Of a DNA stretch of 64,000 nucleotides, positions 1-64,000 are shown in pieces. Source of the DNA: Stegostoma tigrinum (Eukaryota); NCBI RefSeq assembly GCF_030684315.1, contig NC_081391.1, positions 13,245,342-13,309,341 of the forward strand. The letters run 5' to 3'. The position numbers were made by a program, and so were the translations under genes. Positions within the stretch are counted from its first letter, which is position 1, and each line of letters begins with the position of its first letter. The notes beneath the pieces were generated by a model that saw nothing but the letters and a program-made list of their open reading frames with translations, was not told the DNA's origin and made no database searches.

Positions 1-655
1 ACCAGAGTTTGTTGGATCTACACCAACTCACCACAGCCCAGACTGACCCTCATGTAAGCGTCACCTCTTCATTCTCATCACTGCCATGCCTCTTCAACTT
101 CATTGGCTGGTCTTTGTGGAGTGAAAATTTGTAGATGTAACTTTGTCCAGATGCTACATTGTACCTTTGTCATCATAATTATGATGACAATGTTAAATTG
201 CTCAACACTGAACTGAAATAGGAATTTGGATTACCGTCTGGTGGGAATGCTGATGTGATTTTTGGCTGCTGAATTGGGGATTGTTGCACTATACAATACA
301 ACTTGGAGCTCTTTAAGAAGGTGAGATGGATCAGCTGAAGTGTCCTCACTGGCACAAATTCTCCAGGTGCTGGCTTGGTTTTTTTAGGACTGAGTGGGTA
401 TGGTGAAATGTTTTGCAGTGGGAATTCTGAAGTTGTCTTTAATAGTGATTGCAATTTCTCTCATGTTCTGTTGCAGCTGTGACTTCCTGGAGACTCACTA
501 TTTGGATGAGGAGGTGGAGATCATCAAGCAACTTGGGGATGGAGATCATCAAGCAACTTGGGGACTACATCACTGACCTGAAGCACCTGGGAGCCCCTGA
601 GAATGGGATGGGAGAGTACCTGTTTGACAGGCTCTCCCTGGAGGACAGCAGTTAG
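1..655 (+). pseudogene. Ferritin copy A (partial: end of exon 3 and exon 4), frameshifted pseudogene
   Basis: Exon 3 ends at 53 (..TDPH|gt). Exon 4 (477-655) starts CTGTGAC instead of CTGTGTGAC (2-bp deletion) and carries a 25-bp tandem duplication (tggagatcatcaagcaacttgggga), so the net frame is still shifted. AATAAA at 781-786. Confidence 0.88.
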
Positions 656-2084
656 TGTGGCCTGGAGTACTGTCTGCTTGGTCTGAATGCATTCCCTACT
701 TCACCCTGGGCAACCTATCTTCTTCCAGGGAGAAGGGGCTTGTAGCTAAGAATAATGGCTGTACCAGCTGAATGCAAATGAATAAAATCATTTATGATCT
801 TATTGTCCATCATTCAGAGCACTGGATATTTTGGGAAATGTCTTATTGAGCTTGAAGGCAGTTCTCTTTCTGTAATTTGGCTGACCCAATTACTAATTGG
901 ACATGAAAACAACCTTTCAATGGATGTATTTACTCACTCTCGATCATTGCACAGTAACTAGATGGACTTCCTTTTTCTCATGACACAGGAGACTCAAGAC
1001 TTTCCCCTCTAAGTAGGATGAGGTTGGTGTTTTCCCCAATTGTGGGGTGGAAAATCTTCCAGATGTCAATTAGTACACTTGCAGATACTGTAGGTTCAAT
1101 TGTAGTTCAGAGCTTGTCTTCCTTTTTGAGACAGGAAGTTCCTGTACCTTCTCTAAGGGATAAACCAGACGCCCATTCCATAGAATCTGGGATATCTACG
1201 TACAATGCCAGGTTTCCCTTCCTGCAGCCTCCCCTCAGTCACCACGCGCAATGAGATTTGTCACTCGGACACTAATCTAATGGGAAGACAAGCCTGTGAT
1301 CTGGAGGCTGGATCAGTTGACAAAATGCTGGCGGGAGTAGATATATCAAGTTCTGCTCTAAATCCAGTTGCAGGAACCAGCTAAGTTAGGAAAGACCCAG
1401 GCTTGACTCATCTGGTGTAACCTCCCCAGTGAGGCCCTCCCATGACCAATATTTTCTATTCTCAGCATTGTTGTTTTTGGTCTCCTGTGGATGTAGCCAA
1501 GGGATCTTGGAGCCAGTTATGGGTCAAAGCAAGACCAGCACTGGAGGCCTGTGACCTTCTGTTTCTCCCCATCTCTTGTTCCAGCCAACTGCAGTTGCAC
1601 CCCCTGCCTGGTTAAATTTCTCTTGCCAGTTCTGAGGAAGGGTGGCTGGACTCACTGTAGGTTGGCTTTTTCATTCTTCCATCTGAGTAACATAGCACGC
1701 TCCATCTTTGCTCACCAAGGAGTCAGTCCACACTGGGGCTGAGCTTTTCCCAAGAGCAATCCAAAATTGTCTTTAATGTGGCATCCTCCCCTTCTTCCTC
1801 CTCCTTTCTCCACCACACCCCCCCCCTTCTCTCCCAGCATTTATTCCAACAAGCTGCCCAGCCCAGATCTGGGAAAATTCAGCCCAAACGTTCACAGAAG
1901 CCGCTTACCAAGAGGTCAGCTGGAATTCCCATGATCTGTATTGGATTACAATGTCTGCTCTCGATGCTAACAACAGGAAGTTGTAGTTTTTGCTGTAGAA
2001 TCCCTCAATGCGGGCAGATGCCATTCAGCTCATTCAATTTGTAATGGTCTACTGAGCAACCTCCTGCTCAGGGACACCCTATTC

Positions 2085-2335
2085 CCTTAATCCCACATTT
2101 CCCATGGCTAATCTAACAAATCCGAATGCCCCTTGTCACTGTCAGCAATTATCTTTGCCAATCGACCTGATCTGCAGGCCATGGGACTAGGGGAAGCAGT
2201 CGGAGCAGATGGTGGAAATCCATGCAGACACAGGGAGAATGTGCAAACTCCACTCATGTTGCCAAAGGCTCGAATTGAACCAGAGTCCCTGTGGCTGTGA
2301 CGTAACAGTGTTACCCACTGAGCCCCCATCACGTC
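2085..2335 (-). mobile_element. tRNA-derived SINE (HE1/V-SINE-like), degenerate
   Basis: The reverse complement reads gggctcagtgggtaacactg...cacagggactctggttcaattc (A/B-box-like), followed by the V-domain-like gagtttgcacattctccctgtgtctgcatgg. Orthologous copies lie in each intergenic spacer. Confidence 0.7.
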
Positions 2336-2379
2336 CAAAAGTACCAAACAAAAGGGGGAAGCTGTTGCACAGTCATCAA

Positions 2380-3655: not shown

Positions 3656-3843
3656 AGGTCAAAGGTCATTTCAGCAAAACCATCATCGACCAGTTGTCAA
3701 TTCTGATCGGTTTCTGGATCCAATTCCCATCCTGCACTGATTGGACGTGGCAACTGATCAATTGATTAACAAGAGTGATTGGCCATCACTGATGATGTCA
3801 TTTCCTGCTCAAAAAATGAGGGTCTTCTCCTGGAGTATAAATA
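3656..3843 (+). promoter_or_regulatory. Core promoter of ferritin copy B
   Basis: Perfect DR1 AGGTCAAAGGTCA 3656-3668, inverted CCAAT boxes (ATTGG 3740-3744 and 3778-3782), CRE-like TGATGTCA 3793-3800, ETS-like TTTCCTG, and TATAAATA 3836-3843 about 100 bp before the ATG. The block is conserved in all copies. Confidence 0.75.
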
Positions 3844-3938: not shown

Positions 3939-6900
3939 ATGGCCTCCCAGATCAATCAGAACTATCACCAGGATTGTGAAGCTGCTGTCAACAAGCAGAT
4001 TAATGTGGAGCTCACTGCCTCCTATCTCTATCAGTCTTTGGTGAGTGCTGTCCCTGTGGGGTTGGAGTTACTTCTGTTATGAAGTGAACTGTTTTTTTTA
4101 AAACAAACTAGATTAACACTCTTGTAGACTTGTTTGTTTTTTTTATTGTATGTCTTACCTATTTCTTGATTCAGGGTAAATGTGATGACAATGGGATATG
4201 ATACTGATATGTAGCAACTGAGGCCCCAGTTGGCTCAATGATATATGGAGGGTGAAGCATCTTGTGATTTATCTTACAATTCCTTTTAGGGCTGTGATTG
4301 CTTATAACTGGCTGTGGCTCTCCATAATTTTCTAAACTGCTGTCAAGTTTCAAGGATCAAGATAACCATTGGCTAACTACCTTTTTAAATCTGTCTTGAT
4401 GTATCTGCTTTAATTTTGTGCATGTAAATAAACAAACATACTGGTTTTGGTATTTACAATAAGGTGTTGTGGTAATTTGACAAATCAGATTTTTTTTAAG
4501 CTGAACTGAAGTCCTTGAGGTAAGACAAGCTGCTCCCTGCTTAAGTAGGTCTCCTATGTTTTGGCTTTCTGTACCCTATCGTGAGGTGGGTTTGATCCAT
4601 CACTGCACAACCTGTAGAAAGTTGATTTGTTATAGGTGCCTGCCCCCTGCCCCCCCTCACCCCCACCCCCAAAGGGGGCTGCTAGAACATGCTGAGGCTC
4701 TTGACCCAGAAATGAATGTTATTCCTTGACCTTTTATCCAGAAAAAACAAACTGGCTCCTCCCACCAGGTGGTGGTGCCCCTGTGCCCTTCCAAGGGGTA
4801 GAATGTGTCCAGAAGGTGTTGAGGTCCCCTTGGTGAGTGCTGCAGGGGACCTGGTAGATAATGGACCCTGAAAGGAGGTGGTGAATACAGTCCCCTTGAA
4901 GTGGGCTGCTCTGTCCTGGATGGTGTCTACTTCTTGCACGTTGCAGCTCCACTTCTCCAGACACATGGAGAATATTCATCTCTCTCTGGGCTTGTGCCTA
5001 TTGGAAGGAAGTCCTCTCTGGGCACATGAGGATCAAGTCCCTATAACTACCTTTTTGGGAGGTGGGAATAGCTTTAACTGGTGAACCAATTGTTGGGTTT
5101 TGGTCACTGACCACTGTCCAAACTCAATAGGGAATCTTGTGTGCTGATAATAAAATCCCCACTATTCTACAACTTAACTACCCAATTAAACCACTTTTTT
5201 AAACTTTTTGCTTGTATTTGAGGATTAAACTAACTTCTCACCTGGATTCTACCCAGGAACAACTTCTTCTTCTTTTGAAGTCAATAGACTATTCCTAATC
5301 AGCAATAACTTGTTGGATTGTGAATCTCAGTTGAAAAGTGAGTGGGGAAAACAATAGTTTAGCCTCTTGGAATAAGCTAAATTGAGCTCTCCAGCTTTGA
5401 ACAAGTCAATAATCTATAGGTCACACAGTCCTGCAGATACCATTAGGTCTCCTGAACATTGGATCTTGTTTCAGTTGTGTATTTTTTTAATGCTTTGCTT
5501 TGCAAGCTTCTGGCAACCTGAGTGCATGGCATAAACAAATGTGATAAACTATTGCTGCAACAAGCCAAAGGCTGTCACTGGGCAGGCTCTCCTTTAGCAC
5601 CAAGATTCTCCTAATCGCCTTCATTCTCCTGCATACTGCCACCAGCTGCTCTTGTAGAGCTGATTTTATGGTTAATAAAATACAGTACATCTGATCCAAT
5701 TGGTTGCAGAAGACCTGTACCTATTCGCTATATTAATGTCCAGCATCTGCATGTTACTCTAGCACCAGGGGAGACATGTAATGACTTGAAGTTACCTGAC
5801 CCTGTGCACATCCTGCATTCCAGCTCCTGGCACTTGTTTAAACCCTATTCAGTTCCCACTTCCATCCAATGCTGGAGGCTAGATGACAGAAATGTGCATT
5901 CAGCTCTTCTATCTAGGCTGTGCCAGACCCACACCCCCAAACAATTCAGCAGGGTTTACAAACCAGAACACTGAATTTGCATCTTACGTGGAAGATGCTG
6001 GGGTTGTTTGGTTTCCTCCAATTAAAGGAGCTGCTGGCTAATTTTGCAACACCATTAGTGAACATTGTAAGGTGTCAACAATTTTCAACTGATTGAATGA
6101 ATCATTAGTTTGCTTTAGACTGAACCAGTCCTCCAGTTCTGAGCATGAGAAATGGGGTCAATGATGTGTTTAATGGGCTTTAACTTTTGTTCTCCCTTCC
6201 AGATGTCCTACTTTGACCGGGATGATGTTGCCCTCGCCCATGTCTCCCGGTTCTTCAAAGATCAGTCCCAGGAGAAACAGGAACATGCAGAGAAGCTGCT
6301 GAAACTCCAGAATCAGCGTGGAGGCAGAGTCCTCCTCCAGGATGTGAAGGTTGGAGTTGGGGAGGGGGGTGCTGGTGTGGTGTGCAGGAATGGCAGCTCA
6401 TGGTGTTTTCTGTCACTAGTGACAAGATTTTCATGTTGTGAAGGTTGGATTTGGAGAAGGCAGGCAGTGGGGAGGAGATGTGAGAAATGGCTGCTTACGG
6501 TGTGGTTTCATGTCCTGAAAGAAAGTGAAAACTGTTTTGTTTGGCTCCCCTCCTTTTGACTAAAAGGAAAGAAATCCTAGAAACAAGCCTCTTGGCTCCC
6601 CTCCACCTGCTGCTTCCCCAACCCCACCCCACCCCATGCTGAGCCGACAAGCACCAAACCACATTAATCCCATTTACTGCACTTGGTCTACAGCCCCCAT
6701 GGCATTGGTAGTTGTCTAGAAGCTGCTTAAATATTGCAGCAGTAGATGCCTCCCACACTGCCCCCCCCCCCCCCCCCCCGTGTCCCTGCCCACTGCCCCC
6801 ACCCCATGCATTATTTTTCCACTACCCTCTCGGCAAAGGATTCCTCTAACCTGCTGACTCCTCACATCAGTGCCCTCTGGTCTTAATGTCTCTTTCTCCC

Positions 6901-8594
6901 CACCCCCTCATAGCAGACACTCCCCATCTACTATCAAGACTCCACACTAATCAAATGCCATCACATAAACATCTCAACTGACTTCACTCTGAGGATTGGA
7001 GTGAGAAATCTAATCTCTCCTTTTAATGGATTTTTCAGCCTTGGGGCAATGTCCTGGTGACCCCTTCCAGTGCCATTGTGGCTCTGGTCACCACACAGTA
7101 TTCCACCTTTGCATGGCCAATGCTGCAAAGTTTGTGACAAGACTGGAGTCCCTGTACTGCGCCCCAAGAAATGGGGAAGGGCATTGTGGAAGCCATCTTC
7201 CCCATCCTGTCTACACTTATGGATCCTTGAAATATCTCTAGTCTTGTTCTCTTGGTTCCTTTATTGTCAACATATTGCTGTCCCTTCAATGAATTAAATA
7301 GTAGTGATGCTTTTGATCATTCAGGTCAGTCCGAGATGAAGCCATAAGCACAAGTGGGACTTCAACCTGGGCCTATGCTCCAAACCTAGGGACAGTACCA
7401 CTGCATAACAAGCCCTGGGATTAAGTTGTGAATATCCTCCTTGGGATGCCATCAGATGGGCACTGACAATTCTGTGCAAACATAACTCTTATCCCCACTA
7501 TGACCTGGTCGTGAATTGACTCTCCTTTCGGAAGAAGCAAATAGGGCTAAGTGAAAGAAATGTTAAATAACTGATCTGTTCTTCCATAGGGCTTCAGGGA
7601 TGGCAGTGGTTAGCACAACTGCATCAGTGCTTGGGGCACAAGCTTAATTCTGGAGTTGACATGTTCACCACATCTCTACATCGGCTTCCTCCCACAGTCC
7701 AAAGATGTGCAGGGTAGGATAGGGCATGAAAAATGCAGGATTACATGGCTGGGGCTAGGACCAGGTTGGATGCTCTTCAGATGGTCATGAGTGGGCAGAA
7801 TGGCCTGATGCATGCTGCAGGGATTTTGTTTCTGAGGCTTACCTGTCCTTCTTTGCATCCTCAGAAGCCAGAGAGGGATGAGTGGGGTAACAGTCTGCAG
7901 GCAATGCAGGTTGCCCTGGATCTGGAGAAGAATGTGAACCAGAGTTTGCTGCATCTACACCAACTCTCCACAGCCCAGACTGACCCTCATGTAAGCTTCA
8001 TCTCCTCCTCATTCTCATCTCTGCGAGACCCTCAGGGTAACACTTCATTGGTTGGTCTGTGTGGATTGGAAATTCACAGGTGTGCACTGATCACTTTGGG
8101 TCCATGCTGCTGAGCAGTTGTTACATGGTGATCAGTAATGAAGTGAAATGGGAGATTGGGAGTGATGAAGTGATATTGGCCACTGAATTCCCATTCTCAC
8201 TTGGGAGCATTACAGTGGAATGATCATTGTCCATCACCATCCAACTCAGCTCCACTTCACAAACAGCAAGATGGAGCAGCTGAAATCCTATTGTCCTCAC
8301 TGGCACAGATTTTCCAGGTGTTAGCTAAATTTTCAGGGCTGTATGGAACTAGTATGGTAAAGCCTGTTTTTCAGTGGGAATTCTGAAATTGTCTTGGATA
8401 GTGTTAATGCACCCAGTTGTCATATTCCTCTGTTACAGCTGTGTGACTTCCTGGAGACTCACTATTTGGATGAGGAGGTGGAGATCATCAAGCAACTCGG
8501 GGACTACATCACCAACCTGAAGCGCCTGGGAGCTCCTGAGAATGGGATGGGAGAGTACCTGTTTGACAGGCTCTCCCTGGAGGACAGCAGTTAG
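3939..8594 (+). CDS. Ferritin subunit (L/M-like, 176 aa), copy B, intact 4-exon gene
   Basis: Exons 3939-4040, 6203-6349, 7865-7990 and 8439-8594, all GT-AG. Protein [45 protein letters not shown]...[22 protein letters not shown]...[18 protein letters not shown]...[13 protein letters not shown] has the ferritin signatures and vertebrate intron positions. AATAAA at 8724-8729. Confidence 0.95.
4760..5090 (-). mobile_element. Old LINE (CR1/L2-like) ORF2 fragment in intron 1
   Basis: Minus translation [12 protein letters not shown] resembles a LINE ORF2 C-terminal segment. Orthologous copies are in D (~22080-22370), G (~48235-48560) and H (~58320-58620). Confidence 0.45.
7597..7815 (+). mobile_element. 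tRNA-derived SINE (HE1-like) in intron 2 of copy B
   Basis: gggatggcagtggttagcac... head and the V-domain-like ggcttcctcccacagtccaaagatgtgcagg. It sits at the same position in all copies. Confidence 0.6.
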
Positions 8595-11500
8595 TGTGGC
8601 CTGGAGCACTGTCTGCTTGGTCTGAATGCATTCCCCACTTCACCCTGGACAACCTGTCTCCTTCCAAGGAGAAGGGACTTGTGTAGCAAAGAATGTAATA
8701 GCTGTACCAGCTAAATGGAAATGAATAAAATTATGTATTGATCTTGCTTATTGTCCATCATTCAGAGCTCTGAATACTTTGGGTGATAGCTCTTGCTTGA
8801 AGCCAGTTCTCTTCTGTAATTTGATTGGTCTAATTGGACTGGGCAACCCTTCACGGAATCACTCACTATCCCCACATTAGAATGTAACTAGATGGAGTGT
8901 TTTTTTGGTTATTCCTGTGGAAATTGAAGGTGCTTCTCCTCCAAATAGGATAAGGTTGGGATTTGTCAATTGTGGCATTGGCTTTCTTCTAGAGGACAAT
9001 TAGTGCGCTTCTGGATATGGTGGGTTCAACTGTAGCTCAAAGCAATTGTCTTCCTCTGGTGCCAGGAAGCTCCCACACCGTCCAAAGAGACTTCTCTACC
9101 CAGCCTGATAGAATTTGGGATAGTGGTGTTCAATTGCACATTTCCCTTGAAATCTCTTCCCCGCCTCAGCCATCCTGCGTACTCAATTATTGCCTGAATG
9201 ATGACAGCAACAAAAAGTGAAGACAGCCCTTTATCTACTGACCCAGCTGCCTGATCACCAAGGTCTAAAGGAAGAGGCCCAGCAGGCTCTGATTTCAATC
9301 CAGCTGGCGGAAGCAGCAGAGCTGTGAAACAATCTCGATGGCCTGGTATATCTCTTTTTTTTTTCCCCATTGGGCCCTACCCTGACCAAAACACACTATA
9401 TTCTCAGTATTGTTACTTTTTGGTTTCACCATCCCAAACTGTGGCTGGAGCTCCTTCTCTTCCGCCTCTTCCCCGCTTCTCTTTCCCCCCGCCCGCAACC
9501 CAACCTCTTCTTTCTTTTCTTTCCACGTGCCCCCAGCAGCCTTAACCTTCACCACAGCCCCTTCCCCTGGGAGTCAGCTCAAGACATTCACCTGAACTGG
9601 ACTGGATTATCATGTAGAGCCTCATTGCCGCTTACAGCAGGATAACAGGGACCTGGGAATAACACAGCAATGCACCTGGTTAAATGCTGCTGTTTGATTG
9701 GCTCTTGTTGCTAAAGCCAGCATTGAGCGCACTAAGCTGCTCCCTTGGTGAACATTATTCCTGATGCAGGTTGATTGGGTGAAATCACATTGAAGGAGCA
9801 AAGTGGCTCGGAGAGGAGACATGGAGATGCTGACTTTCCTTTACGGCTGCTTCTTTTATCTTTCAAGGTGTCAGAGATCATGGGTTCGTGAGGGGGCTAT
9901 CAGAGACATCCTGAGGATTGTTCCAGGGAGTTTTGTAGCGAGTGCACACTGCAGCCTTCATAGAGGTTGGCGGGGGGGGAGGGGTTGCTGCAGAGTCAAA
10001 AGGCACTCAACATATTTGTTCCACCACATAAAGCAATTTATTTTCGGTGAATAAGTCTGGGCTACAGTAACCCTCAAGTGCAGGAAGGGACCATTAGGCC
10101 CATTAAATCTGCATCGACCTTCTGAACAGCATCCTCTTTAGACCCAACCCCTTTGCCTTAACTCCACATTTCCCACGGCGAATCGACCTAGTCTGCAGGC
10201 CCCTGCTCACGATCGACAATCTGCAAATCATTGGGCTGTGTGAGGAAACTCAAGCACCTGGAGGTAATCCACGCAGGCCATCACCCATGGGTAGAATCGA
10301 ACCTGGGTCCCTGGCACTGAGGCGCCAAAGCATTCTAAAGTACCAAAGGAAAGGAATACACTGCGGCAAACTACATCATGGGAATAGACTCTGCAGCCCA
10401 GCCCGAACTTGCAGACCAGGTTTTCATAAACTGTGTAGTGCCATTTGCCTACATTTGGCCCATCTTTCTCTAAACCGTTCCTTTCCATGTAAATCTCCAA
10501 ATGTCACTTAAATGTTGTAATTCTATCCACCTCTACCACTTCCTCTAGCAGCTCGTTCCACACACGCACCACACTATGTGTGAAAATGTTGTCACTCACG
10601 CCCCTTTTAAATCTTGCCCCTCTCCCCTCAAACCAATGCCCTCTAGTTTTGGACCCCCCCTACCCTGTCCCAGCATGCTTTTTATATACAGTCAATCTTG
10701 AGTGTGCCAATGGCAAGGCTACATTTAGTGCTCAGCAACTCTTACACTTCAGGAGGTGGTAATGAGCTGCGTATTACAGTCCACCTGGTGTCGGAGAGAC
10801 CGGAATGATGCTGCTGCTGTTGCTGAGGAGGGGCTTCTGGGATTTTCATTCACAAACAGGGATATTGTTCCAAGTCAGGATGGTGACAGAGTTACATGGA
10901 GCTGCTTGAGTGTCGTTGGTGCTGCCTCCAGCGAGAACATTGTAAACTATTCCAGCACTACTCCCAATTTCAGCCTTATTGAGGGTGGGCAGGTTTTGGA
11001 AACTCAGGAGTTGAGTACTTCCTGACAGAATTCCCAGCATCTGAATTCCCAGTTTCTGAGCTGTACCATCTACAGAACGCAATGTAAACAGGACCAGAAA
11101 TTGCTCACTTGGAAACATGCTGGGGTTAATCGCTAGTTCTACTTCAACCAACGAAAAACGAAACTGGGAGACAGAAATGTTCAACGTGCGATACATTTCT
11201 AGCAGCAACTGAGACATAGAGGCCTGAGGCCTACTGTGTAGAAGAGGCACTCAGCACATTTAGCGTTTTGCTTTTCAAACTGGGCCTTCAAGGTCAAGGT
11301 CAGGGAGATCAAATCAGATGCAGATTGGATCCACAAAGTACATCAGTTGCCTGTTTTAGACGATCCAAAAGCACATTATTTCTGTTGCTGCACAGAAATA
11401 GGAAAATGTTCAGATCAACCAAATCGAGCCATTTTTCAAAGAGCTCCAACACCAACGTTCAAAAATTATGACGACTAATCCCTCAGAATAGCAATCCGAC

Positions 11501-11625
11501 AGAATTCTGCAAATCTGTGATGAGTGTGTCTTAACGCACAACCTCAGATACAGACGTGAAGTTTTAGAGTATATTTTATTCTCATTTTCAGGGAGATGTC
11601 CTTCCAGAATTTGCACTTGTGCGGG

Positions 11626-11814
11626 AGGTCAAAGGCCATTTCAGCAATTTCATCATCAACCAGTTGTCAATTCTGATTGGTTTTTTGACCCGATTCCCAT
11701 CCTGCACTGATTGGATGTGGCAGCTGATCAAGTGATTAACAAGAGTGTTTGGCCATCACTGATGATCTCATTTCCTGCTTCATAAAATGAGTGTTGCCTC
11801 CTGGAGTATAAATA
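11626..11814 (+). promoter_or_regulatory. Core promoter of ferritin copy C
   Basis: DR1 variant AGGTCAAAGGCCA 11626-11638, ATTGG boxes, TATAAATA 11807-11814. Confidence 0.7.
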
Positions 11815-11900
11815 GAGTCCCACGGGAGGGATGTTTATTGTTGCTTTTAACTTTGTCATTTTTGTGGTGAGGAAAATAAAGCAAGCGTTTCCTTTATAAG

Positions 11901-14900
11901 ATGGCCTCCCAGATCAGTCAGAACTATCACCAGGATTGTGAAGCTGCTGTCAACAAGCAGATCAATGTGGAGCTCACTGCCTCCTATCTCTATCAGTCTT
12001 TGGTGAGTGGTGTCTCTGTTGGGTGAAACATACTTCTGTTCTGTTGAAGTAACCTCTTCCCCTTGGATGTAATTAAGTTGTCTATCTTCTAGACTGAGTT
12101 TTGTGGCTCCTACCTCTTTCTCAATGCAGGATGAGTGTGATGTTACTGTAACAATAGTTTGGTGTCTAATGTTACTCTAACTTGGGTCCCAGTTGGTTGT
12201 CAGTGAGATGTGGAGGGTGGAGTGTTCTTGTAGTTACTTGCCTGTCCCATGATGGTGCTGTGACTGGTGGTAATTATCGCTTCCTGTGACTGTTTGTTTG
12301 AAACTTGAGGGAACAAAATTAAAAATGAATTGGGACTCACCATTGTGGGAACGGAAGCACCATCAGCTAGTCACTGCTTTTCTTTTCCCTCTTGTGTCCT
12401 TGTTTCTATTTGAATCTTGTGGGGATCTGAAGTAAACCTGCCAATTGATACTGAGAATCTTGGTTTCCTATTGCAATCAGCTTAGAATAGGCTTGTTCTA
12501 GCCCTACAGAGCGGGGCCGAGAGGTGGCAAATGGAGTTTAATGCAGCTAAGTGTGAGGTGATGCACTTTGGTAGGAGTAACTGGAAGGCTAAGTACAGCG
12601 CTAAGGGTAAGATTCTTGGTGGTGTAGATGAGCAGAGAGATCTGTTGATAGATAGACATGGATTGTTGAAAGTTGCCACCCAGGTTGACAGGGCAATTAA
12701 GGTAGTGTTTTGTTTTCTATTAATAGAAGACTGAGTTCTGGAACCAAGAGGTTATGGTGAAGCTGTACAAAACTCTGGTGCAGCTGCACTTGGAGTATTG
12801 CGTACAGTTCTGGTCACTGCATTATAAGGATGTGAAGCTTTGGAAAGGGTGTAGAGGAGATCTGCTAGGATGTTGCCTGGTATGGAGGGAAGATCTTATG
12901 AGGAAAGGCTGAGGGACTTGAGGCTCTCTTCATTAGAGAGAAGAAGGTTGAGAGGTGACTTAATTGAAAGATATAAAATAATCAGAGAGGGCTAGTTAGG
13001 GTGGATAGGGAGAGCCTTTTTCCTAGATGGTGATGGTGAGCATGAGGTGGGGTAGCTTTAAATTGAGGGCTGATAAATATAGGACAGATGTCAGAGGTAG
13101 TTTCTTTATTCAGTAAGGGAATGTAATGCTTTGCCTGTGACAGTAGTAGATTTGCCCACTTTAGGTACACTTAAGTCATCATTGGATAAGCAAATGGGCG
13201 TACATGGAATAGTGTAGGTTAGATGGGCTTGAGATCAGTATGACAAGTCGGCACAACATCAAGGGCTGAAGGGCCTGCACTTGGCTGTTATGTTCTATGC
13301 TCAGATTAAACTGGGTGAGGTTGTGACTCTTATCTGATTAAGCAGATCTCCATTTGAAATCTACCTTGCTTTTCTTCATACTCATGAGGTGGGTGTGGGC
13401 TGTCTGTATGTCAAGTGTTGGAGCTTTTCAAAGGCACAGCACTGCCATGGGGCTGAGAATGTACTGACCCAGTGACTCTGGTAAAAAGTTTATGCCCGTT
13501 GTATTTGGCCTGATTCTAAACTAACTGGCCCCTCTTTCCCCAGATGGGGTGCTTGTGCCCTTCCAAGGGGTAGAATGTGTTTAGAAGGTGTTTACGTAAC
13601 CTTAGTGTTTGTTGCAGGGTGCTCTCTGGGCTTGTCCCTGTCAGCAGGAAGTCCCCTCCTGATGAGGATCAAGCCCCTGTCAGCCCCACTTTGGGAGGGG
13701 GAACAGCTTTCATTGAGCCAGCAGTTGGGTTTTAATCACTGACCCATTGTCCCAACACACCTTGTAAGCATGTGCCAGGAATGAAATCCTTACTATTCTA
13801 CATCTTCTAACTGCACATTTAAATCGCAAAGATAAATTGTGCTTGTGTGTGCATTTGAGAATTGAAGCAACTTTTTTCAGCAGGATTTGTAAGAATGTGC
13901 TTGTTACTGGCTGCTTCCAATAGCAGACCCGTTAAACCTCAATACACTGAATTGTGAACATCCTGGTTTAGAAATCTACAGGACTTTGCCTGTTGGATTA
14001 AGTCAACAGTGGTTTTTCCAGGTTAATGAGGGATCTTGTCTGGAGAGTAGTTGATCTGCAGATCACTGTCATATTTGTCATGTGATCAGTTTGTTTTGTC
14101 AGTCTTTCTTTCATGTGTAATGGTACAAGTTGCTAGCAGTCTGAGTCAGTGCAGCTGTTTTAGATGCAGCAGTAAACTGTTGCAGTAACAATCCAAAGGC
14201 TGTCCTTAGGCAGGCTTTCCTTGGCAGATTCTTGGAGCTAACGTCCTTCATTCATCTCCTCATGCACCCGCAGGCACCCCTATACTGCAGTTCTTGTCAA
14301 ACTAATAGATACAGTGCATCCAATTGCATTGATCCTGACTAAGCAGAAAATGTGCTTCTTCCTAGCTGTTAATTGCAGTGTCTAGGATCTGTTTTCTGGT
14401 CTTTGCCAAAGCAGCAATACAGTGCCCTGCAGCTGTTCTATTGGTGTACATCCTGTGCTCCAGCCCCTGGCACTTCTTGAAACCCTGTTCAATCAAAGTT
14501 TTATCCCATTTCTGGTGGAGGTTAATCAGTAAAAACATCAATTCACACTTGTTCTCACCAAATGCTGTGCCAGACCCTCCTGGGCAAGTTGCCAGGAGTT
14601 TCAAACCAAAATAAAACACATGGTGTTTACAGCTTACCTGGAGGAAGCTGAGATTGTTTTGATTTTTCCAATTCAACAGCAACTGCTCCAAACTGGGTTC
14701 TGAATTGTTAATGCATCAGGTACTTAACAGCTTATTGTCAGTTTGATTTTGAGAATGCTCAAGTAGCCCTGTAGTTCTGAACTGAAATTGGACCATGACG
14801 TGTTAATGGACTTTACCGTGTTCTCCCTTCCAAATGTCCTACTTTGACCGGGATGATGTTGCCCTTCCCCATTTTTCCCAGTTCTTCAAACATCAGTCTC

Positions 14901-47012: not shown

Positions 47013-47195
47013 GCTCCAACACCAATGTTCAAAAGTTATGACGACTATTCCCTCAGATTAACAATCCGACGAAATTGTGCAAATCTGTGATGACTGAGTC
47101 TTAACGCACAACCTCAGATACACAAGTGAAGGTTTAGAGTATATTTTATTGTCATTTTCTGGCAAATACATTTACAGAATGTGCACTTGTACAGG

Positions 47196-47382
47196 AGGTC
47201 AAAGCTCATTCAGCAATTCCATCATCGACCAGTTGTCAACTGTGTTTCGTTTCTGGATCCAGTTCCCATCCTGCACTGATTGGACGTGGCAGCTGATCAA
47301 CTGATCATCAAGAGTGATTGGCCATCACTGATGATGTCATTTCCTGCTTCATAAAAAGAGGGTCTGCCCCTGGGGTATAAAT
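47196..47382 (+). promoter_or_regulatory. Core promoter of ferritin copy G
   Basis: DR1 variant AGGTCAAAGCTCA 47196-47208, ATTGG x2, TGATGTCA, TATAAAT 47376-47382. Confidence 0.7.
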
Positions 47383-56555: not shown

Positions 56556-56744
56556 AGGTCAAAGGTCATTCAGCAATTCCGTCATCGACCAGTTGTCAAT
56601 TCTGATCGGTTTCTGGATCCAATTCCCATCCTGCACTGATTGGACGTGGCAGCTGATCAATTGATGAATGAGAGTGATCGGCCATCACTGATGATGTCAT
56701 TTCCTGCTCAAGAAAACGAGGGGGCTGCTGCTCGAGTATAAAAA
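56556..56744 (+). promoter_or_regulatory. Core promoter of ferritin copy H
   Basis: Perfect DR1 56556-56568, ATTGG, TGATGTCA, TATAAAAA 56737-56744. Confidence 0.65.
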
Positions 56745-57500: not shown

Positions 57501-58805
57501 CACAAACTGGCCTCCCAGATCAGTCAGAACTATCACCAGGATTGTGAAGCTGCTGTCAACAAGCAGATTAATGTGGAGCTCACTGCCTCCTATCTCTATC
57601 AGTCTTTGGTGAGTGCTGTCTTGATGGAGTTGAAATTAAATCTATTCTGCAAATATGAGCTGATCCTCTTGTTTCTAATTAACTTCATAGTCTTGTAGAT
57701 TTGAGGTGTTCAAGTTCTTAGCTTAAAAATCATTTTGGGATAAATGTGATGCCCTTTGGTAACAATGGATTTTGATATTGATGTAGAATAACTAATTCAC
57801 CAGCTGGGATTGAGTGATAGATGGAGGGCAAATTGTTCTGTCAATTATTTTACAATTTACTGCCAGGCCTTTGCCTGGTGGTAACTGTCTATTTTCTCCC
57901 CAGAATTGACCAACCTTTACTAAAAATAGATGTAATGGTTTTGGGAGTTGTAGGCACCCCTTGGCTAGTCATCCTGAAACATTTTAATATACCTTGATCA
58001 CACTTTATTTGTCCTCTGATCCTAAATAAACATCATGCCAGTTTCCATTCTGTGATGGAGAATGATGGTGGTGACTGGCTTCTGAGCGTATTCACTTGTA
58101 ATTTGCATTGAGGAGGCCTCAGATGTGGACTAGTTGGCTTTCTGCCTTCTCCATTCACGAATGGACTGTTAGTGGTCAGGAAGTCACTTGTTGTCCATTC
58201 CTCCAACAGATCAATGCTCTCCTGTGAGTGCATGCACAGGGTGCCTGGAATAACCTGAGGTTTTTATTTCAATAAATATGAAGAAATGGGAAATGGCCCC
58301 TTTCTCCACGTAGTACTGTGCCCATGCCCTTCCAAAATGGAAGGATGTAATGGTTTGGAAATGTTGAAGCAGATTTTGAAGGCTGCTGGGTACCTAGTAG
58401 GTAGTGGACACCAGGAGTGCATTCACTCACTCCCTTCAATGAGGTGGGCTGCTCTATCCTGCACAGTGTCTACTTTGTGCATGTTGCAGCTCCACTTCTT
58501 GGGACAAGGGGACAATATTTATCCCTTGTGGGGCTTATCACTGAGAAGCCATCTCTTCCCACTCTTTCAGGATGAAATCCCTGTACCCTTCCCTTTAGCA
58601 GGTGGGAACAGCTATCACCAATAAGCCTTTTGGGTCTTAACTGTCAGTGGTGTCCCTCATCAATTGGGCAGCATGTGCCCAAACAACCCACTATCCTCCA
58701 TCTGTAAGATGCAGCTACCCAAGTTAAGCCAGAGAAATTTACACAACTGTTTTTTGACAAAAGAAGCTTCTTAGCCTGATCAGTAGGAACTAGATAACCT
58801 GCTTT

Positions 58806-60375
58806 AACAAGGTGTCAAGCTGGATGAACACAGCAGGCCAAGCAGCATCAGGGAAGCTGATGTTTTGGGCCTGGACCCTTCAGAAATGGGGAGGGGAATG
58901 GGTCCCTGACATAGGAAGGGGTGGGGAGGTGGATGGATGAGGGATAAAGAAACAGATGGTGAGGAGACAGAGGTCTGAGGTGAGGATAGGGCCAAAAAGG
59001 CCAAATGAGTTGGGTAGGCTTGTCCAGGGAGGTGGGGATGGGTTTTGAGGTAGGGGTGGTGTGGGGAAGTAGGTGGGAGGAAGGATGGACAAGCTAGGGA
59101 GGTGGGGACCAGCTGGGCTGTGATTGGGGGCAGGGAGATCTTTCAGCTTAAGTCCTCACTGATACCATTGGGCTGCAGGGTTCCCAAGCAGAATACAAGG
59201 TGCTGTTCCTGCAACCTTTGGGTGGCATTGGAGGCCCAGAATGGACATCAACTGTCCCCTCCTGCTCCTCTGAAGGGGAAGTAGTTTGTGACTGGGAGGT
59301 GCAGCTGCCAGTCATGAGCCAAGCATGGGTGCTCCACAAAGTGGAGTCAAGCCTCTGCTCGGCTTTCCTGATGTAGAGAAGGCCACATTAGGAACAGTGG
59401 ATACAGTATACATCACTGCAGATGTGTAGGTGAACATCTGCTTGATGTGGAAGGTCTTGGGCCCTGGGATGGGGGGGGAGGTGTAGCACTATCTGTGTGG
59501 CAGTTAAAGCCCTGGCTGGAGGGGCTAGTGGAATGGACAAGGAATCAGTGGTCTCTCCAGAAGGCAGCTAAGGTTGGGGAGGTAAAAAATGTCTTGGCCA
59601 GATCGCAGATGGTCGAAGTGCCAGAGGATGATGCATTGGATCCAGGCATTGAGGCGGTACTGAAGGATGAGAGGATTCTGTTTTGGTTGTGTGCGGGATA
59701 AGTTGCAAGACACTGTTGTGTTTTTCTTCAACTGAAGGTAAGTTACACTTCATTGGAAAATGAGGACATCTGGGATGCCCAGGAGTAGAATGCCTCCCCT
59801 CAGGGCTGGAGGTGAAGGAATTGGATTAGGAGATGGCACTTTCCTTCCACAGGAAGGTGGGTGAGGTGTATTCTAGGTAGCTGTAGGAGTCAGTAGGTTA
59901 GAAATATATCCAAGGATATATCGAAGATTGATAGATCAACTTAAGGTTGAGGTAGAAGGTTCTAATGAATTAGAGGAACTGTTCAAGCTCTTTGTGGGAT
60001 GTAATAGAGGAAGATGTGGAGTTTATGGCCCATCTCGCTGTAGAAGGATTGTTCCACATATCCTACCAAGAAGCAGGCACAGCTTGTACCTATGGCCACC
60101 CCCTTCCTCTGTAGGAGTTGGGAGGAATTGAAGGAGAAGTTGGGGGTGAGGATGAGTTTGCTAGGTGGACAAGGTTGTTGGTGAACAGGGACCAGTCAGG
60201 CCTGCAGGACGAGAGAAGCAGAGGGAATTAGGCCATCTCCATGGGGAATGGATGAGGTTGGAGGCTGTGGGTGGGAGGTAACCTCCAGTGAGGTTGTGGA
60301 TGGACTAGGAGATGGTTTGGTGGTCAGCGGTGGAGTCATGATCAAGGTGGGTAGGTGGTAGGAGGCATCGGCTGC
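58806..60375 (-). mobile_element. Penelope-like retroelement (RT + GIY-YIG), degenerate, in intron 1 of copy H
   Basis: The minus strand of 60061-60156 reads LILTPNFSFNSSQLLQRKGVAIGTSCACFLVG (PLE RT motif, cf. GVAMG). About 59350-59410 reads VYCIHCS*CGLLYIRKAEQRL (GIY-YIG with CxxC insert). A PLE-type terminal sequence lies at 58806-58886. Confidence 0.8.
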
Positions 60376-60948
60376 TCTTCCACACAACTACATGTGGCAC
60401 TCCAACTCCTGGCATTTCCTTTAAACCCTGTTCAGTCACGAACTTCATCCAATTCTGATGGTGCTTAGAGTGGATATGTTCTTCTCTCTACAGACAAGAA
60501 CAGGCCTGGTCAATTCACAGGTTTTTGTAAAGGAATTTTAAAAAATAGGGTATTTGCCTGGTTACCAGGAGGAGGCGAGGGTTGTTTTTGATGATTCTTG
60601 AACTGGAGCCACTGGCTAACTGGACAATGGTTCTCCTCCAACTTGATGTATCTAATATTTATTGACTTCTCAATTTGAAGGTGAAACCAGTCATGTCTGG
60701 CACCAATTGTATGATGTTTAATGGATGTAACTTGTTTTCTCCCAGGTGTCGTACTTTGACCAGGATGATGTTGCTCTCCCCCATGTCTCCCGGTTCTTCA
60801 AAGATCAGTCCCAGGTGAAGCAGGAACGTGCAGAGAAGCTGCTGAAATTCCAGAATCAGCGTGGAGGCCAAGTCTTCCTCCAGGATGTGAAGTTTGGAGT
60901 TCGGTTTTTGGGGTGGGGGGAGTTGGGTGGTAGAGTGGCTGCTCCTCA

Positions 60949-61267
60949 GGGATGGCACAGTGACTCAGTGTTTACCATGCCTGCCTCAGTGCCAGGGATC
61001 CAAGTTGGTTCTTGGTTCTAGGCTCCAGTGAATGAGTGATGTTTACTTGCTCTTGCCATGTCCACATTGGCTTCACAGTTCAATGATGTGTGTGTTAGAA
61101 GGATTGCCATTTAAAATGCAGGGTGACAAGAATAAGGTGGGATTCTTCACGGAGAAGGGCCTTGTCGCAACAAACGTAGTGGCTGTACCTGCTGATCGGG
61201 GATGAATGAAATGATGCAGTGACCTTGGTTATTGTCACCATGAGTCAAATAGCCTGTTCCCATGCTG
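60949..61267 (+). mobile_element. tRNA-derived SINE (HE1-like) in intron 2 of copy H
   Basis: Head gggatggcacagtgactcagtgtttaccatgcctgcctcagtgccagggatcc. Confidence 0.65.
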
Positions 61268-61380
61268 CAGAGATTGTGAAGCTTACCTGTCCTCTCTCCA
61301 TCCGCAGAAGCCAGAGAGGGATGAGTGGGGTAACAGCCTGCAGGCAATGCAGGTTGCCCTGGATTTGGAGAAGAATGTGA

Positions 61381-64000
61381 ACCAGAGTTTGCTGGATCTA
61401 CACCAACTCGCCACAGCCCAGACTGACCCTCATGTAAGCTTCACCTCTTCATTCTCATCACTGCCATGCCTCTTCAACTTCATTGGTTGGTCTTTGTGGA
61501 GTGGAAATTCGCAGACGTAACTTTGTCCAGATGCTACATTGTACCTTTGTCATCATAATTATGATGACAATGTTAAACTGCTCAACACCGAACTGAAATA
61601 GGAATTTGGATTACAGTCTAGTGGGAATGCTGATGTGACTTTTTTGACTGCTGAATTGGGGATTGTTGCACTATACAAGACAACTTGGAGCTCTTTGAGA
61701 AGGTGAGATGGAGCAGCTGAAATGTCCTCACTGGCACAAATTCTCCACCTATTAGCTAGATTTTCAGGGCTGTCTAGAGCTAGTTGTGGCTCAGTCTTTT
61801 TCAGGAGGAATTGTGAAGTTGTCTTGGATAGTATAAATGTACCAAGTGTCATATTCCTCTGTTGCAGCTGTGACTTCCTGGAGACTCACTATTTGGATGA
61901 GGAGGTGGAGATCATCAAGCAACTTGGGGACTACATCACCAACCTGAAGCGCCTGGGAGCCCCTGAGAATGGGATGGGAGAGTACCTGTTTGACAGGCTC
62001 TCCCTGGAGGACAGCAGTTAGTGTGGCCTGGAGTACTGTCTGCTTGGTCTGAATGCATTCCCCACTTCACCCTGGACAACCTGTCTCCTTCCAGGGAGAA
62101 GGGACTTGGAGCAAAGAATGTGATGGCTGTACCAGCTGAATGGGAATGAATAAAATCATGTATTGATCTTGTTTATTGTCCATCATTCAGAGCACTGGAT
62201 ATTTTGGGAAATGTCTTATTGAGCGTGAAGGCAGTCCTCTTTCTGTAGTTTGGCTGACCCAATTACTAATTGGACATGAAAACAACTTTTCAATGGATGT
62301 ATTTACTAACTCTCGATCATTGCACAGTAACTAGTTGGACTTGCTTTTTCTCATGACACAGACTCAAGACTTTCCCCTCTTAATAGGATGAGGTTGGTGT
62401 TTCCACAATTGTGGGATGGAAAATCTTCCAGAGGTCAATTAGTACACTTCTGGATACTGTAGGTTCAATTGTAGTTCAGAACTTGTCTTCCTTTTTGAAA
62501 CAGGAAGTTCCCGTACCTTCTCTAAGGGATAAACCAGACGCCCATTCCATAGAATCTGGGATATCTACGTTCAATGCCAGGTTTCCCTTCCTACAGCCTC
62601 CACTCAGTCACCACGAGCAATGAGATTTGTCACTCGGACACTAATCTAATGGGAAGACAAGTCTGTGATCTGGAGGCTGGATCAGTTGACAAAATGCTGG
62701 CGGGAGTAGATATATCAAGTTCTGCTCTCAATCCAGTTGCAGGAACCAGCTAAGTTAGGAAAGACACAGGCTTGATTCATCTGGTGTAACCTCCCCAGCG
62801 AGGCCCTACCATGACCAGTATTTTCTATTCTCAGCGTTGTTGTTTTTGGCCTCCTGTGGATGTAGCCTAGGGATCTTGGAGCCGGTTATGGATCAAAGCA
62901 GGACCAGCACTGGAGGCCTGTGACCTTCTCTTTCTCCCCATCTCTTGTTCCAGCTAACTGCAGTTGCACCCCCTGCCTGGTTCAATCCCTCTTGACAGTT
63001 CTGAGGAAGGGTGGCTGGACTCACTGTGGGTTGGCTTTTTCATTCCTCCATCTGAGTAACATAGCCCGCTCCATCTTTGCTCACGAAGGAGTCAGTCCAC
63101 ACTGGCGCTGAGCTTTTCCCAATAGCAATCCAAAATTGTCTTTAATGTGGCATCCTCCCCTTCTTCCTCCACCACACCCCCCTTCTCTTCCCAGCGTTCA
63201 CTCCAACAAGCTACCCAGCCCAGATCTGGGAAAATTCAGCACAAACGTTTGCAGAAGCCACTTACCAACAGGTCAGCTGGAATTCCCCTGATCTGTATGA
63301 GATTACAATGTCTGCTCTTGATGCTAACCTCCTGCTCAGGGACACCCTGTTCCCTTAATCCCACATTTCCCATGGCTAATCTAACAAATCCGAATGCCCC
63401 TTGTCACTGTCAGCAATTATCTTTGCCAATCGACCTAATCTGCAACCCATTGGACTAGGGGAGGGAGTCGGAGCAGATGGTGGAAATCCATGCAGACGCA
63501 GGGAGAATGTGCAAACTCCACGCATGTTGCCAAAGGCTCGAATTGAACCAGAGTCCCTGTGGCTGTGACGTATCAGTGCTCACCACTGAGCCCCCATCAC
63601 GTCCAAAAGTACCAAACAAAAGGGGGAAGCTGTTGCACAGTCATCAAGTCGTACATCATGGAAATAGACTCTTCTGCCCACACAGTCCCTACACACCAGG
63701 TTTCCAAAACTCTGTAGTGCCATTTGGCCCATCTTCCTCGAAGCCATTCCTTCCCCCATAAGTGTCCAAATGTCTCATCAAAGTGGTAATTATACGCACC
63801 TCTCCCGCTTCTTCTGGCAGCTCGTTCCATACACACACACACCACCCTCTGTGTGAAAACATGGTCCCTCATGTCCCTTTTAAATTTTTGCCCCTCTCCC
63901 CTCAAACCGATGCCCTCCAGTTTTGGACTCCCCTAATCTGTCCCAGCATGCTTTTTATATAAAGTCAATCTCGAGTGTGCCAAGGGCAAGGCTACGTTTA
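61381..64000 (+). repeat. Higher-order repeat of window positions 1-~2730
   Basis: Colinear near-identity: ORF pairs 1551/62920, 1778/63147 and 2209/63477, and the same exon-4 2-bp deletion. Confidence 0.9.

Follow-up and report, generated by a model that had tools for sequence, protein, structure and literature searches.

A tandem ferritin array of Stegostoma tigrinum with lysine at the Glu62 ferroxidase position

Architecture of the array

The window, a stretch of 64,000 nucleotides from the zebra shark Stegostoma tigrinum, a carpet shark, contains a head-to-tail array of ferritin genes (Table 1). Searching the whole window by blastn with the four exons of copy B gave 30 matches, which resolve into seven complete four-exon genes plus the last part of an eighth; every one lies on the forward strand. 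The original prediction of eight intron-containing copies is thus borne out, with one copy cut by the window edge. A tblastn search across the window with three shark ferritins found no extra ferritin exon, no minus-strand match, and no copy with a canonical site. The distance from stop to stop between copies is 7.9–10.4 kb.

Copies B, E, F, and G are intact, each with a 531-nt open reading frame, 176 encoded residues, and GT-AG introns. Copy C also has an intact reading frame, and its intron 1 has an AA acceptor in place of AG. Copies A, D, and H share the loss of 2 nt where exon 4 begins. In addition, exon 4 of A carries a 25-nt duplication, D is interrupted by two in-frame stops, and intron 2 of H has a TT donor. 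The 5′ end of H is unreliable because its start codon adjoins assembly gaps, with N runs at 56819–57098 and 57221–57410. This status of four intact genes, one splice mutant, and three pseudogenes exactly matches what had been predicted. The closest relatives of the window copies are S. tigrinum RefSeq proteins, in line with the chondrichthyan origin first assumed; the protein of copy E equals XP_059496503.1 at 175 of 176 residues.

The window opens inside exon 3 of copy A and ends in a spacer, as originally described. Since this terminal spacer is 90–95% identical to the A–B spacer, the array likely continues past the window. The predicted continuation is also supported by RefSeq, from which 43 distinct S. 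tigrinum proteins of the same subfamily (K62, see below) were retrieved from one chromosome; a single Stegostoma contig holds many more copies of the subfamily than the window does. Pfam searches of 18 non-ferritin frames, out of 50 frames listed, assigned four to reverse transcriptase and returned no match for 14. The window contains no gene flanking the array.

Table 1. Features of the 64,000-nucleotide window.
Feature	Position	Strand	Remarks
Copy A, 3′ part	1..655	+	Pseudogene; exon 3 tail 1-53, exon 4 477-655; exon 4 lacks 2 nt at its start and has a 25-nt tandem duplication at 515-564
B proximal promoter	3656..3840	+	Perfect DR1 3656, inverted CCAAT 3740 and 3778, E-box-like hexamers 3751, ETS-like motif 3799, TATA 3835
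Copy B	3939..8594	+	Intact; exons 3939-4040, 6203-6349, 7865-7990, 8439-8594
12.9-kb higher-order duplication block	8404..21190	+	Spans the end of B, the whole of C, and sequence upstream of D; partner 34345-47139
C promoter	11626..11811	+	DR1 with one mismatch, TATA 11806
Copy C	11901..17096	+	ORF intact, intron-1 acceptor AA; exons 11901-12002, 14834-14980, 16351-16476, 16941-17096
D promoter	21247..21431	+	Perfect DR1, TATA 21426; 24-nt duplication in 5′ UTR at 21468-21523
Copy D	21556..25699	+	Pseudogene; exons 21556-21657, 23489-23641, 24984-25109, 25546-25699; exon 2 has a stop-bearing 6-nt insertion, exon 3 a stop, and exon 4 lacks 2 nt at its start
E promoter	29082..29267	+	DR1 with one mismatch, TATA 29262
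Copy E	29357..34530	+	Intact; exons 29357-29458, 32269-32415, 33799-33924, 34375-34530
Partner 12.9-kb block	34345..47139	+	Spans the end of E, the whole of F, and sequence upstream of G; 95.2% identical to 8404-21190
F promoter	37579..37764	+	Perfect DR1, TATA 37759
Copy F	37854..43026	+	Intact; exons 37854-37955, 40754-40900, 42281-42406, 42871-43026
Broken reverse-transcriptase (LINE-type) fragment, F-G spacer	45511..46596	+	Pfam RVT_1; twin at 19756-20437 in C-D spacer
G promoter	47196..47380	+	DR1 with one mismatch, TATA 47375
Copy G	47469..51631	+	Intact; exons 47469-47570, 49333-49479, 50886-51011, 51476-51631
H promoter	56556..56741	+	Perfect DR1, TATA 56736; followed by assembly gaps
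Copy H	57507..62021	+	Pseudogene; exons 57507-57608, 60746-60892, 61308-61433, 61868-62021; start codon unreadable beside N gaps
Terminal spacer	62022..64000	+	Paralogous to A-B spacer (90-95% identity); points to a further copy beyond the window

Protein fold and ferroxidase site

Exons 2–4 of copy G match Pfam PF00210 (Ferritin). The predicted structure (P0010; pLDDT 89) comprises helices A–E at residues 11–39, 46–72, 93–120, 124–154, and 161–172 and superimposes on the frog M subunit with a TM score of 0.94. Each live copy would encode a subunit of normal ferritin fold with a normal 3-fold iron channel. The channel residues Asp131 and Glu134 (D128 and E131 of the copies) are present in all five open-frame copies. 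Among 89 carpet-shark members of the K62 clade, D131 is found in 79 (9 uncovered) and E134 in 80 (8 uncovered).

Copy residues 24, 59, 62, 104, and 138 correspond to E27, Glu62, H65, E107, and Gln141 of human H ferritin. Five of the seven ferroxidase ligands are kept, namely E27, Y34, E61, H65, and E107; Glu62 is replaced by lysine and Gln141 by glutamate. The lysine occurs in all seven window copies holding exon 2. K59 and E104 coexist in every open-frame copy and match the Lys62–Glu107 pair of L chains; a K58–E103 salt bridge is found in all mammalian L chains (PMC2603009, also the source of the ligand list). Human L likewise has glutamate at the Gln141 position (2fg4 alignment). However, the mammalian L chain lacks Glu27 and His65, and the window copies keep both (E24 and H62). 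Of the cavity nucleation glutamates of L, E53, E56, E57, and E60, two are present (position 54 is A, D, or H; 57 is Q; 58 and 61 are E). With the nucleation carboxylates half present, the subunit may not nucleate like L.

The original description of these proteins as ferroxidase-deficient captures the altered site correctly and overstates the deficiency, as E27 and H65 are retained and the published ferroxidase null is the double mutant E62K + H65G. No paper on E62K alone was found in the literature searched.

A shark clade defined by lysine 62

In a 53-row tree, the window copies fall in a shark clade with support of 100/99, referred to here as K62. Its members come from Heptranchias, Heterodontus, Mustelus, Scyliorhinus, Cetorhinus, Carcharodon, and carpet sharks. 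Among 252 named chondrichthyan proteins from 14 taxa, lysine occupies position 59 in 121 of 122 clade members. Of the 92 carpet-shark members, 83 have glutamate at 138 (Q141E) and 9 do not cover that column; none of the 30 others has it. Lysine at 62 is also seen in a lizard and in the canonical array of Heptranchias (5 of 25 proteins); the change arises easily, since GAG to AAG is a single transition.

The best tree joins the K62 clade to the shark canonical array (support 53/70) and not to bony-vertebrate M. Grouping with FTH1 (p-AU 0.45) or with the amniote M/L lineage (p-AU 0.07) is not rejected, in a tree without named therian FTL, as the search for named mammalian L chains returned none. 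The proteins returned for comparison included none from Somniosus. The proteins sampled from Pristiophorus (14), Pristis (1), and Callorhinchus (8), a partial sample, included none of the K clade, so some lineages may be able to do without the subfamily.

In each member species, proteins of the K type and of the canonical type come from contigs of the same length. In Carcharodon, both lie on one 33.13-Mb contig, and the K-clade ones group with the window copies. The companion array, with a canonical ferroxidase site, is the larger. In sharks, this chromosome carries three or more ferritin lineages, of which the window holds only K62. The companion lineages had been missed in the original prediction. 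The labels 'heavy', 'middle', 'FTL', and 'FTH1' on shark ferritin genes do not follow these lineages.

Promoters and site of expression

Upstream of all seven copies with a 5′ end, motifs occur in an identical order; they are putative DR1, inverted CCAAT, E-box-like, ETS-like, and TATA elements. A polyadenylation hexamer lies near the stop in all eight copies. A perfect DR1 motif is located ~180 bp before TATA in B, D, F, and H, with a chance expectation of 1.6e-4 per 400 bp for what is one origin, since copied. The motif has one mismatch in C, E, and G. The motif behind the predicted nuclear-receptor promoter exists, but that claim went too far, hanging on one motif that is perfect in two of the four intact copies.

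The predicted lack of an IRE is upheld. Rfam gave no IRE match up to E=10 in the window (forward strand) or in 46900–47600, and a loop-and-stem scan of the forward strand of the window found none. No CAGWG loop lies between TATA and ATG in six of six copies (start site inferred, scan without positive control). Because the bases before the ATG are acceptor-like in five copies, we also considered that the 5′ UTR might hide an intron, with the IRE on an exon further upstream. This was judged unlikely because copy E lacks such bases and the TATA box lies 94–130 nt upstream of the ATG in all copies.

We tentatively prefer a reading that falls a little short of an even chance. The window would be a slice of the shark ferritin mega-cluster holding only the K62 subfamily, an IRE-free, dosage-amplified, ferroxidase-poor partner subunit that most likely serves oocyte iron stocking. 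Given the missing IRE, the short 5′ UTR, and the TATA/CCAAT/DR1 promoter, output would be set by transcription and copy number rather than by cell iron. This pattern would suit a bulk tissue-specific product, with stocking of the very large oocyte as its most likely use. Ferritin clusters of >100 genes in Greenland and white sharks are ovary-expressed, and the largest Greenland-shark cluster is ovary-specific, with the subfamily of the ovarian copies not stated (Sahm et al. 2024, bioRxiv 10.1101/2024.09.09.611499). K62 expression is probably ovarian as well, and the egg role among those first proposed gains indirect support from that report. For a lamniform-like source, transcription is suggested by a 631-bp contig that carries a K-clade open frame of spliced length. 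No cytoplasmic polyadenylation element, a sign of oocyte mRNA, was found within 250 nt of any of the eight stops.

The DR1 site also fits liver or gut (HNF4-type), which counts against the ovary. The same L-like subunit could be made there under an HNF4/PPAR/COUP-type receptor for long-term somatic iron storage, as L-rich ferritins are the storage form in mammals. Ferritin, subfamily not given, is also among the liver-assembly-specific proteins in spiny dogfish (PMC5568229). We consider a liver or gut source unlikely, given the imperfect DR1 in half of the intact copies and the loss of the IRE that mammalian L keeps; moreover, the only expression statement for a shark cluster is the ovary-specific one (10.1101/2024.09.09.611499).

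Iron chemistry of the K62 subunit

In the preferred explanation, each live copy would produce a 176-residue cytosolic subunit. Judging from the sequence, we infer that it oxidizes Fe(II) poorly, because lysine replaces the bridging ligand Glu62, together with glutamate at Gln141. The retention of E27, Y34, H65, and E107 counts against this. A probable Lys62–Glu107 salt bridge would stabilize the subunit as it does mammalian L chains. Most likely, the subunit would build 24-mer cages together with the canonical-site subunits of its cluster, as a stable partner of low activity.

Alternatively, K62 cages may have left iron chemistry and serve, iron-poor, as bulk yolk, structural, or antioxidant protein. 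The lost bridging ligand, the incomplete nucleation site, and the missing IRE are consistent with this idea. There are also precedents in IRE-less atypical ferritins with E62K in sponges (PMC8395497) and in the germline protein FTHL17, which is testis-specific and without ferroxidase activity (PMC5363321). Such a departure is nonetheless rather improbable. D131, E134, E27, H65, and E107 are almost invariant in the 89 carpet-shark members, suggesting that metal handling is still selected. With 70% identity to frog M, the copies also lie well apart from the atypical class, whose identity to human H is <49%.

The opposite possibility is that the subunit retains useful ferroxidase activity in a rearranged site, with Glu141 and Glu61 replacing Glu62, and that 'deficient' is wrong. 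The five kept ligands and the carboxylate that Q141E adds at site B would favor it. It appears doubtful, as Glu62 is a ligand of both ferritin iron sites, lysine at 62 is the L-chain state, and all 30 members outside carpet sharks have K62 without Q141E.

Duplication history and selection

The array would have grown by unequal crossing-over, which adds or removes units of one or more genes; exons would be homogenized between copies, some copies dying and purifying selection keeping the rest. The higher-order duplications in the window are mosaic, in agreement with this history. In five of the six intact pairs, synonymous differences amount to 5–9%, against 18–24% mismatches where the introns can be aligned (Fisher p 0.0012 to 1e-6, for pairs that are not independent); pair E–F shows no such difference. 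The dN/dS ratio is 0.20–0.41 in all six pairs.

Four of the eight window copies are damaged, which counts against our preferred explanation. Copy number could be a by-product of an unstable, repeat-rich locus, in which a single copy or a handful is important, the others drifting by birth and death without dosage selection. The spread of one frameshift to three copies and the LINE fragments in the spacers agree with that, and exon homogenization can mimic constraint. Still, drift alone has little to recommend it, as K-clade sets are multi-copy in 11 of 14 taxa, promoters are conserved in all seven copies with a 5′ end, and dN/dS is well below 1.

False duplication of haplotigs, an artifact the original prediction had warned of, is rejected as scarcely credible: despite the N gaps with low-quality poly-C at 56.8–57.5 kb and a few 400-bp tiles of 99–100% identity, the closest 12.9-kb blocks are only 95.2% identical with 51 gap openings, the longest exact repeat in the window is 327 bp, introns are 18–24% apart, and many independent shark assemblies contain ferritin arrays.

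Comparison with known ferritin systems

The array itself is not the undescribed system first proposed, because larger equivalent clusters are published for the Greenland and white sharks, and a 14-copy array for the hadal snailfish; a published equivalent was among the findings that the original prediction had named as refuting it. Like the present array, the clusters of Sahm et al. are very large; they are at least 250 My old and syntenic between species. Carcharodon proteins of both classes group with the window copies or the companion array, so that membership in a multi-copy cluster is shared with the white shark. The text of Sahm et al. labels copies FTL or FTH1, contains no occurrence of 'ferroxidase', and does not cover IREs, subfamilies, or carpet-shark arrays. 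In a second Greenland-shark preprint (10.1101/2025.02.19.638963), 'ferritin' is absent from the text. The K62 clade is an old subfamily within the known mega-cluster, apparently unnoticed so far. No description of it was found in the literature searched, which covered few subscription journals and, of Sahm et al., the text.

The amphibian and fish M (H′) subunit (bullfrog 1mfr, 4mku) is the best match in sequence and fold (~70% identity, 176 residues), but it is active and has Glu at 58/59 and Gln at 137/138, where the window copies have Lys and Glu. Mammalian FTL shares the two substitutions, Leu at the 4-fold channel position, and four exons. The window copies differ from it in E27 and H65, the incomplete nucleation carboxylates, the missing IRE, ~60% identity to horse L, and their multiple copies. 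The tandem fthl27 expansion of the hadal snailfish is likewise read as a dosage adaptation; it is recent, lineage-specific, broadly expressed, and protects cells from ROS (PMC10746142). The mammalian FTHL17 cluster is multi-copy, germline-expressed, and homogenized by gene conversion (PMC5363321), but FTHL loci are retrocopy-like and H-derived, whereas the shark copies have three introns. Sponge HdF2 shares E62K and the lack of an IRE (PMC8395497); the atypical invertebrate ferritins have diverged much further, have lost several ligands, and come from minor single genes.

Implications

Taken alone, the array extends a published shark feature to one more species; the subfamily is of greater consequence. 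Fish are usually described with H and M chains only, and the inactive L chain is regarded as a tetrapod invention. Possibly, though we would not count on it, a light chain arose in sharks independently of the mammalian one. Such a K62 subunit would be older than the sevengill/galeomorph split, ferroxidase-poor, stabilized by the salt bridge, pushed toward L by Q141E in carpet sharks, and freed of the IRE. Tens of copies beside an active-subunit array would then yield a heteropolymeric egg ferritin, with gene copy number fixing the ratio of its subunits. If true, a conserved shark clade with the L-type lysine beside active subunits would provide a natural test of a repeated H/L division of labor. 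It would also show the effect of E62K alone on a site keeping E27 and H65, and would bear on why sharks keep hundreds of ferritin genes.

Ferroxidase site of the K62 subunit

The model of the shark protein P0010 contains the five ferritin helices, with a pLDDT of 89, and matches frog M ferritin with a TM score of 0.94 at 70% sequence identity. Its identity to human H and horse L is about 65% and 60%, respectively. PMC2603009 lists seven ferroxidase ligands; five are kept, and two are changed, Glu62 to Lys and Gln141 to Glu. Lys occupies the Glu62 site in all seven copies holding exon 2, encoded by AAG in six and by AAA in copy B. Human L also aligns a Glu at position 141. However, L chains lack Glu27 and His65, according to the accessible part of PMC6929972, and both residues are kept in the window copies, which have only two of the four cavity glutamates typical of L. 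The K62 protein therefore does not qualify as an L chain. All mammalian L chains contain a Lys58–Glu103 salt bridge that steadies the shell and costs activity (PMC2603009, available text).

The K62 subunit is predicted with good reason to be ferroxidase-poor, because Glu62 serves both iron sites. The two substitutions bear out part of the original prediction of a ferroxidase-deficient protein, but Glu27 and His65 persist and the standard null mutant combines E62K with H65G (PMC6929972, accessible part). Retention of ferroxidase activity by the K62 subunit is improbable.

Phylogeny and origin of Lys62

A careful tree was built from 53 named proteins, none of them a therian L chain. The K62 proteins form a single branch with support of 100/99, comprising Heptranchias, Heterodontus, Mustelus, Scyliorhinus, Cetorhinus, Carcharodon, and four carpet-shark genera. 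Nested within it, a single carpet-shark branch unites the Q141E forms (100/99). A second shark lineage, the canonical-site array, includes one Callorhinchus and one Pristis protein (93/93). A third contains about one gene per species (100/98). This third lineage (the P0159 cluster, P0169, P0199, P0218, and P0231) has a canonical site and shares the chromosome of the arrays; it may represent the housekeeping gene that gave rise to them.

Among the matches listed, 121 of 122 K-clade members have Lys at position 59, the equivalent of Glu62. No K-clade member was seen among the listed proteins of Pristiophorus (14), Pristis (1), and Callorhinchus (8). Union of the K clade with FTH1 (p-AU 0.45) or with the amniote M/L lineage (p-AU 0.07) is not rejected, and a grouping with the shark canonical array is backed at only 53/70. 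An independent origin of Lys62 in the K clade is favoured, since the relatives from platypus, crocodile, frog, sturgeon, and coelacanth have Glu at this site. Lys62 should not be over-read, because one transition is enough to produce it and it recurs elsewhere. In the Heptranchias canonical array, among the matches listed, Glu62 is lost again to Lys in 5 of 25 proteins and to Asn in 4 of 25 (P0025, P0118–P0125, P0203, and P0226), and the lizard protein P0211 (Elgaria) likewise has Lys.

Relatives in sharks

The best-matching proteins are Stegostoma tigrinum RefSeq models encoded on a single 26.87-Mb contig. Copy E equals XP_059496503.1 at 175 of 176 residues, and the variants that distinguish the exons of D, E, and H from all other copies each recur in one Stegostoma model. 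The matches listed include 252 named chondrichthyan proteins, counting fused models and isoforms. At least 63 are from Stegostoma: at least 43 of the window's type, at least 19 of the canonical-site array, and at least one of the single-copy lineage. Across species, clusters at 90% identity have 45, 76, and 43 members for the window's type versus 180, 138, 127, and 69 for the canonical type. Within each species, proteins of the two types come from contigs of identical length, which points to one chromosome.

Many RefSeq models (P0002, P0004, P0135, and their clusters) are 260–300 residues long and fuse exon 3 of one copy in frame with exon 2 of the copy that follows, all introns being of phase 0. 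They are probably chimeras made by the annotation where a copy has a damaged exon 4; true read-through splicing is the alternative. Vertebrate-type ferritins also appear under Salmonella or Aeromonas names (P0255, P0258, P0316, P0430, P0471, and P0178) on contigs shorter than 900 bp. They are likely contamination, and several fall into clusters of shark sequences. P0258 holds an entire K-clade frame on 631 bp and resembles a spliced cDNA.

Gene copies in the window

A blastn search of the window with the four exons of one copy yielded 30 matches. Together they make up seven full genes of four exons each, plus the 3′ part of one more, and every copy is on the + strand in head-to-tail order. No additional ferritin exons were found in the window by tblastn with three shark ferritins. 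In copies A, D, and H, exon 4 begins with the same 2-nt deletion (positions 477, 25546, and 61868); each of the three has extra lesions, and D and H share Val at position 58. The common deletion identifies a dead allele spread by copying along the array. Frame and splice-site inspection reproduced exactly the predicted count of four intact copies, one splice mutant, and three pseudogenes. The array also likely runs past the window, as had been proposed, since the last 2.6 kb is 90–95% identical to the first 2.7 kb.

The start of copy H adjoins two N runs and its start codon is not readable; these runs and poly-C filler lie between its promoter and exon 1 (56819–57500), a local weakness of the assembly. 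Copy E has an extra in-frame ATG immediately 5′ of the usual start (29354–29359), and copy D has several upstream ATGs inside a duplicated 5′ UTR.

A segment of about 400 bp travels with nearly every unit at 81–96% identity and lacks any long open frame; a minus-strand frame taken from it matched nothing in Pfam. The segment may be the remnant of an old transposon or a distal enhancer. Broken LINE-type fragments, located in the spacers and within intron 1 of copies C, E, and F, account for the G-skew peaks of the window.

Ferritin copies and other elements in the window
Feature	Position	Strand	Description
Copy B	3939–8594	+	Intact; 531-nt frame, GT-AG, phase-0 introns
Copy C	11901–17096	+	Frame open; intron-1 acceptor AA
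Copy E	29357–34530	+	Intact; 531-nt frame, GT-AG, phase-0 introns
Copy F	37854–43026	+	Intact; 531-nt frame, GT-AG, phase-0 introns
Copy G	47469–51631	+	Intact; 531-nt frame, GT-AG, phase-0 introns
400-bp segment	10640–11060
Homologues of the segment	2645–3060, 18816–19217, 28097–28503, 36592–37006, 44753–45156, 53904–54312		Upstream of most copies
LINE-type fragments	19756–20437, 45511–46596		Broken reverse transcriptase
Pieces related to LINE fragments	12504–13299, 29949–30725, 38453–39218
Piece related to LINE fragments	54366–55773		Inverted

Evolution of the array

In comparisons of 400-bp tiles, C, E, and F are alike over most of their length. Copy D is a mosaic whose upstream spacer pairs with that of G and whose intron 3 pairs with those of A and H, and copy E changes partner near exon 4. 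This mosaic suggests unequal crossing-over in units of one to two genes.

Synonymous sites differ by 5–9% versus 18–24% for the alignable parts of introns (20–100% of the intron) in five of the six intact pairs; the sixth, the recent relatives E and F, shows no such gap. We read the pattern as exon-centred gene conversion, with selection on synonymous sites as the alternative. Exon 4 of E (34369–34545) and of G (51470–51646) is identical across 177 bp and intron 3 differs by about 19%, likely marking a recent conversion tract.

The dN/dS ratio is 0.20–0.41 in all six intact pairs, which have few sites and are not independent. It is very unlikely that copy number merely reflects drift. An assembly artefact, such as the falsely duplicated haplotigs considered in the original prediction, is scarcely credible, as the closest large blocks (8404–21190 and 34345–47139) align at 95.2% identity, with 51 gap openings in 12,890 columns, and the longest exact repeat within the window is 327 bp.

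Regulatory sequences

The predicted lack of an IRE is supported: Rfam gave no hit up to E = 10, either across the window or in the stretch preceding G, the loop motif is absent between TATA and ATG in six of six copies, and no IRE-like hairpin occurs anywhere on the + strand of the window. Each of the seven copies whose 5′ end lies in the window contains what we take to be a DR1-like element, an inverted CCAAT, E-box-like hexamers, an ETS-like motif, and a TATA box. DR1 is unlikely by chance, its expectation being 1.6e-4 per 400 bp. The proposed nuclear-receptor promoter rests on this one motif, which matches perfectly only in copies B, D, F, and H and carries a mismatch in two of the four that are intact. 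Between distant copies, the proximal 200 bp of the promoter diverges by 10–14% versus 14–21% further upstream. The motifs name no tissue.

Known arrays and possible role

A tandem fthl cluster exists in zebrafish, and a journal report on ferritin expansion in the Greenland shark is said to have appeared later than the preprint cited here. According to the available text of that preprint (Sahm et al., bioRxiv 10.1101/2024.09.09.611499), the Greenland shark has 155 "FTL" and 179 "FTH1" copies, about 80% of its ferritins lie in three clusters syntenic with white shark, and the largest cluster is expressed specifically in the ovary. These clusters are equivalent to the window array and larger, so the array is not the undescribed system it had been proposed to be. 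The text available does not contain the word "ferroxidase" and does not resolve subfamilies. Precedents, again from partial texts, are the 14 fthl27 copies of a hadal snailfish (PMC10746142), FTHL17 clusters with gene conversion (PMC5363321), and a sponge ferritin with E62K and no IRE (PMC8395497); the available parts of PMC11719527, PMC5568229, and PMC13701976 have little further bearing. No description of the K62 subfamily was found in the literature covered, which mostly excludes subscription journals. The ferritin array as such is already known, and the L-like K62 subfamily appears to be the new part.

The role that we tentatively favour for this subfamily is bulk supply of a subunit, probably to the oocyte. 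Service in liver or gut storage is unlikely, and an iron-poor bulk protein is slightly more so. In the favoured oocyte supply, the K62 genes would give bulk output free of iron-dependent translational control, and their stable, low-activity product may co-assemble with the active subunits encoded by the neighbouring array.
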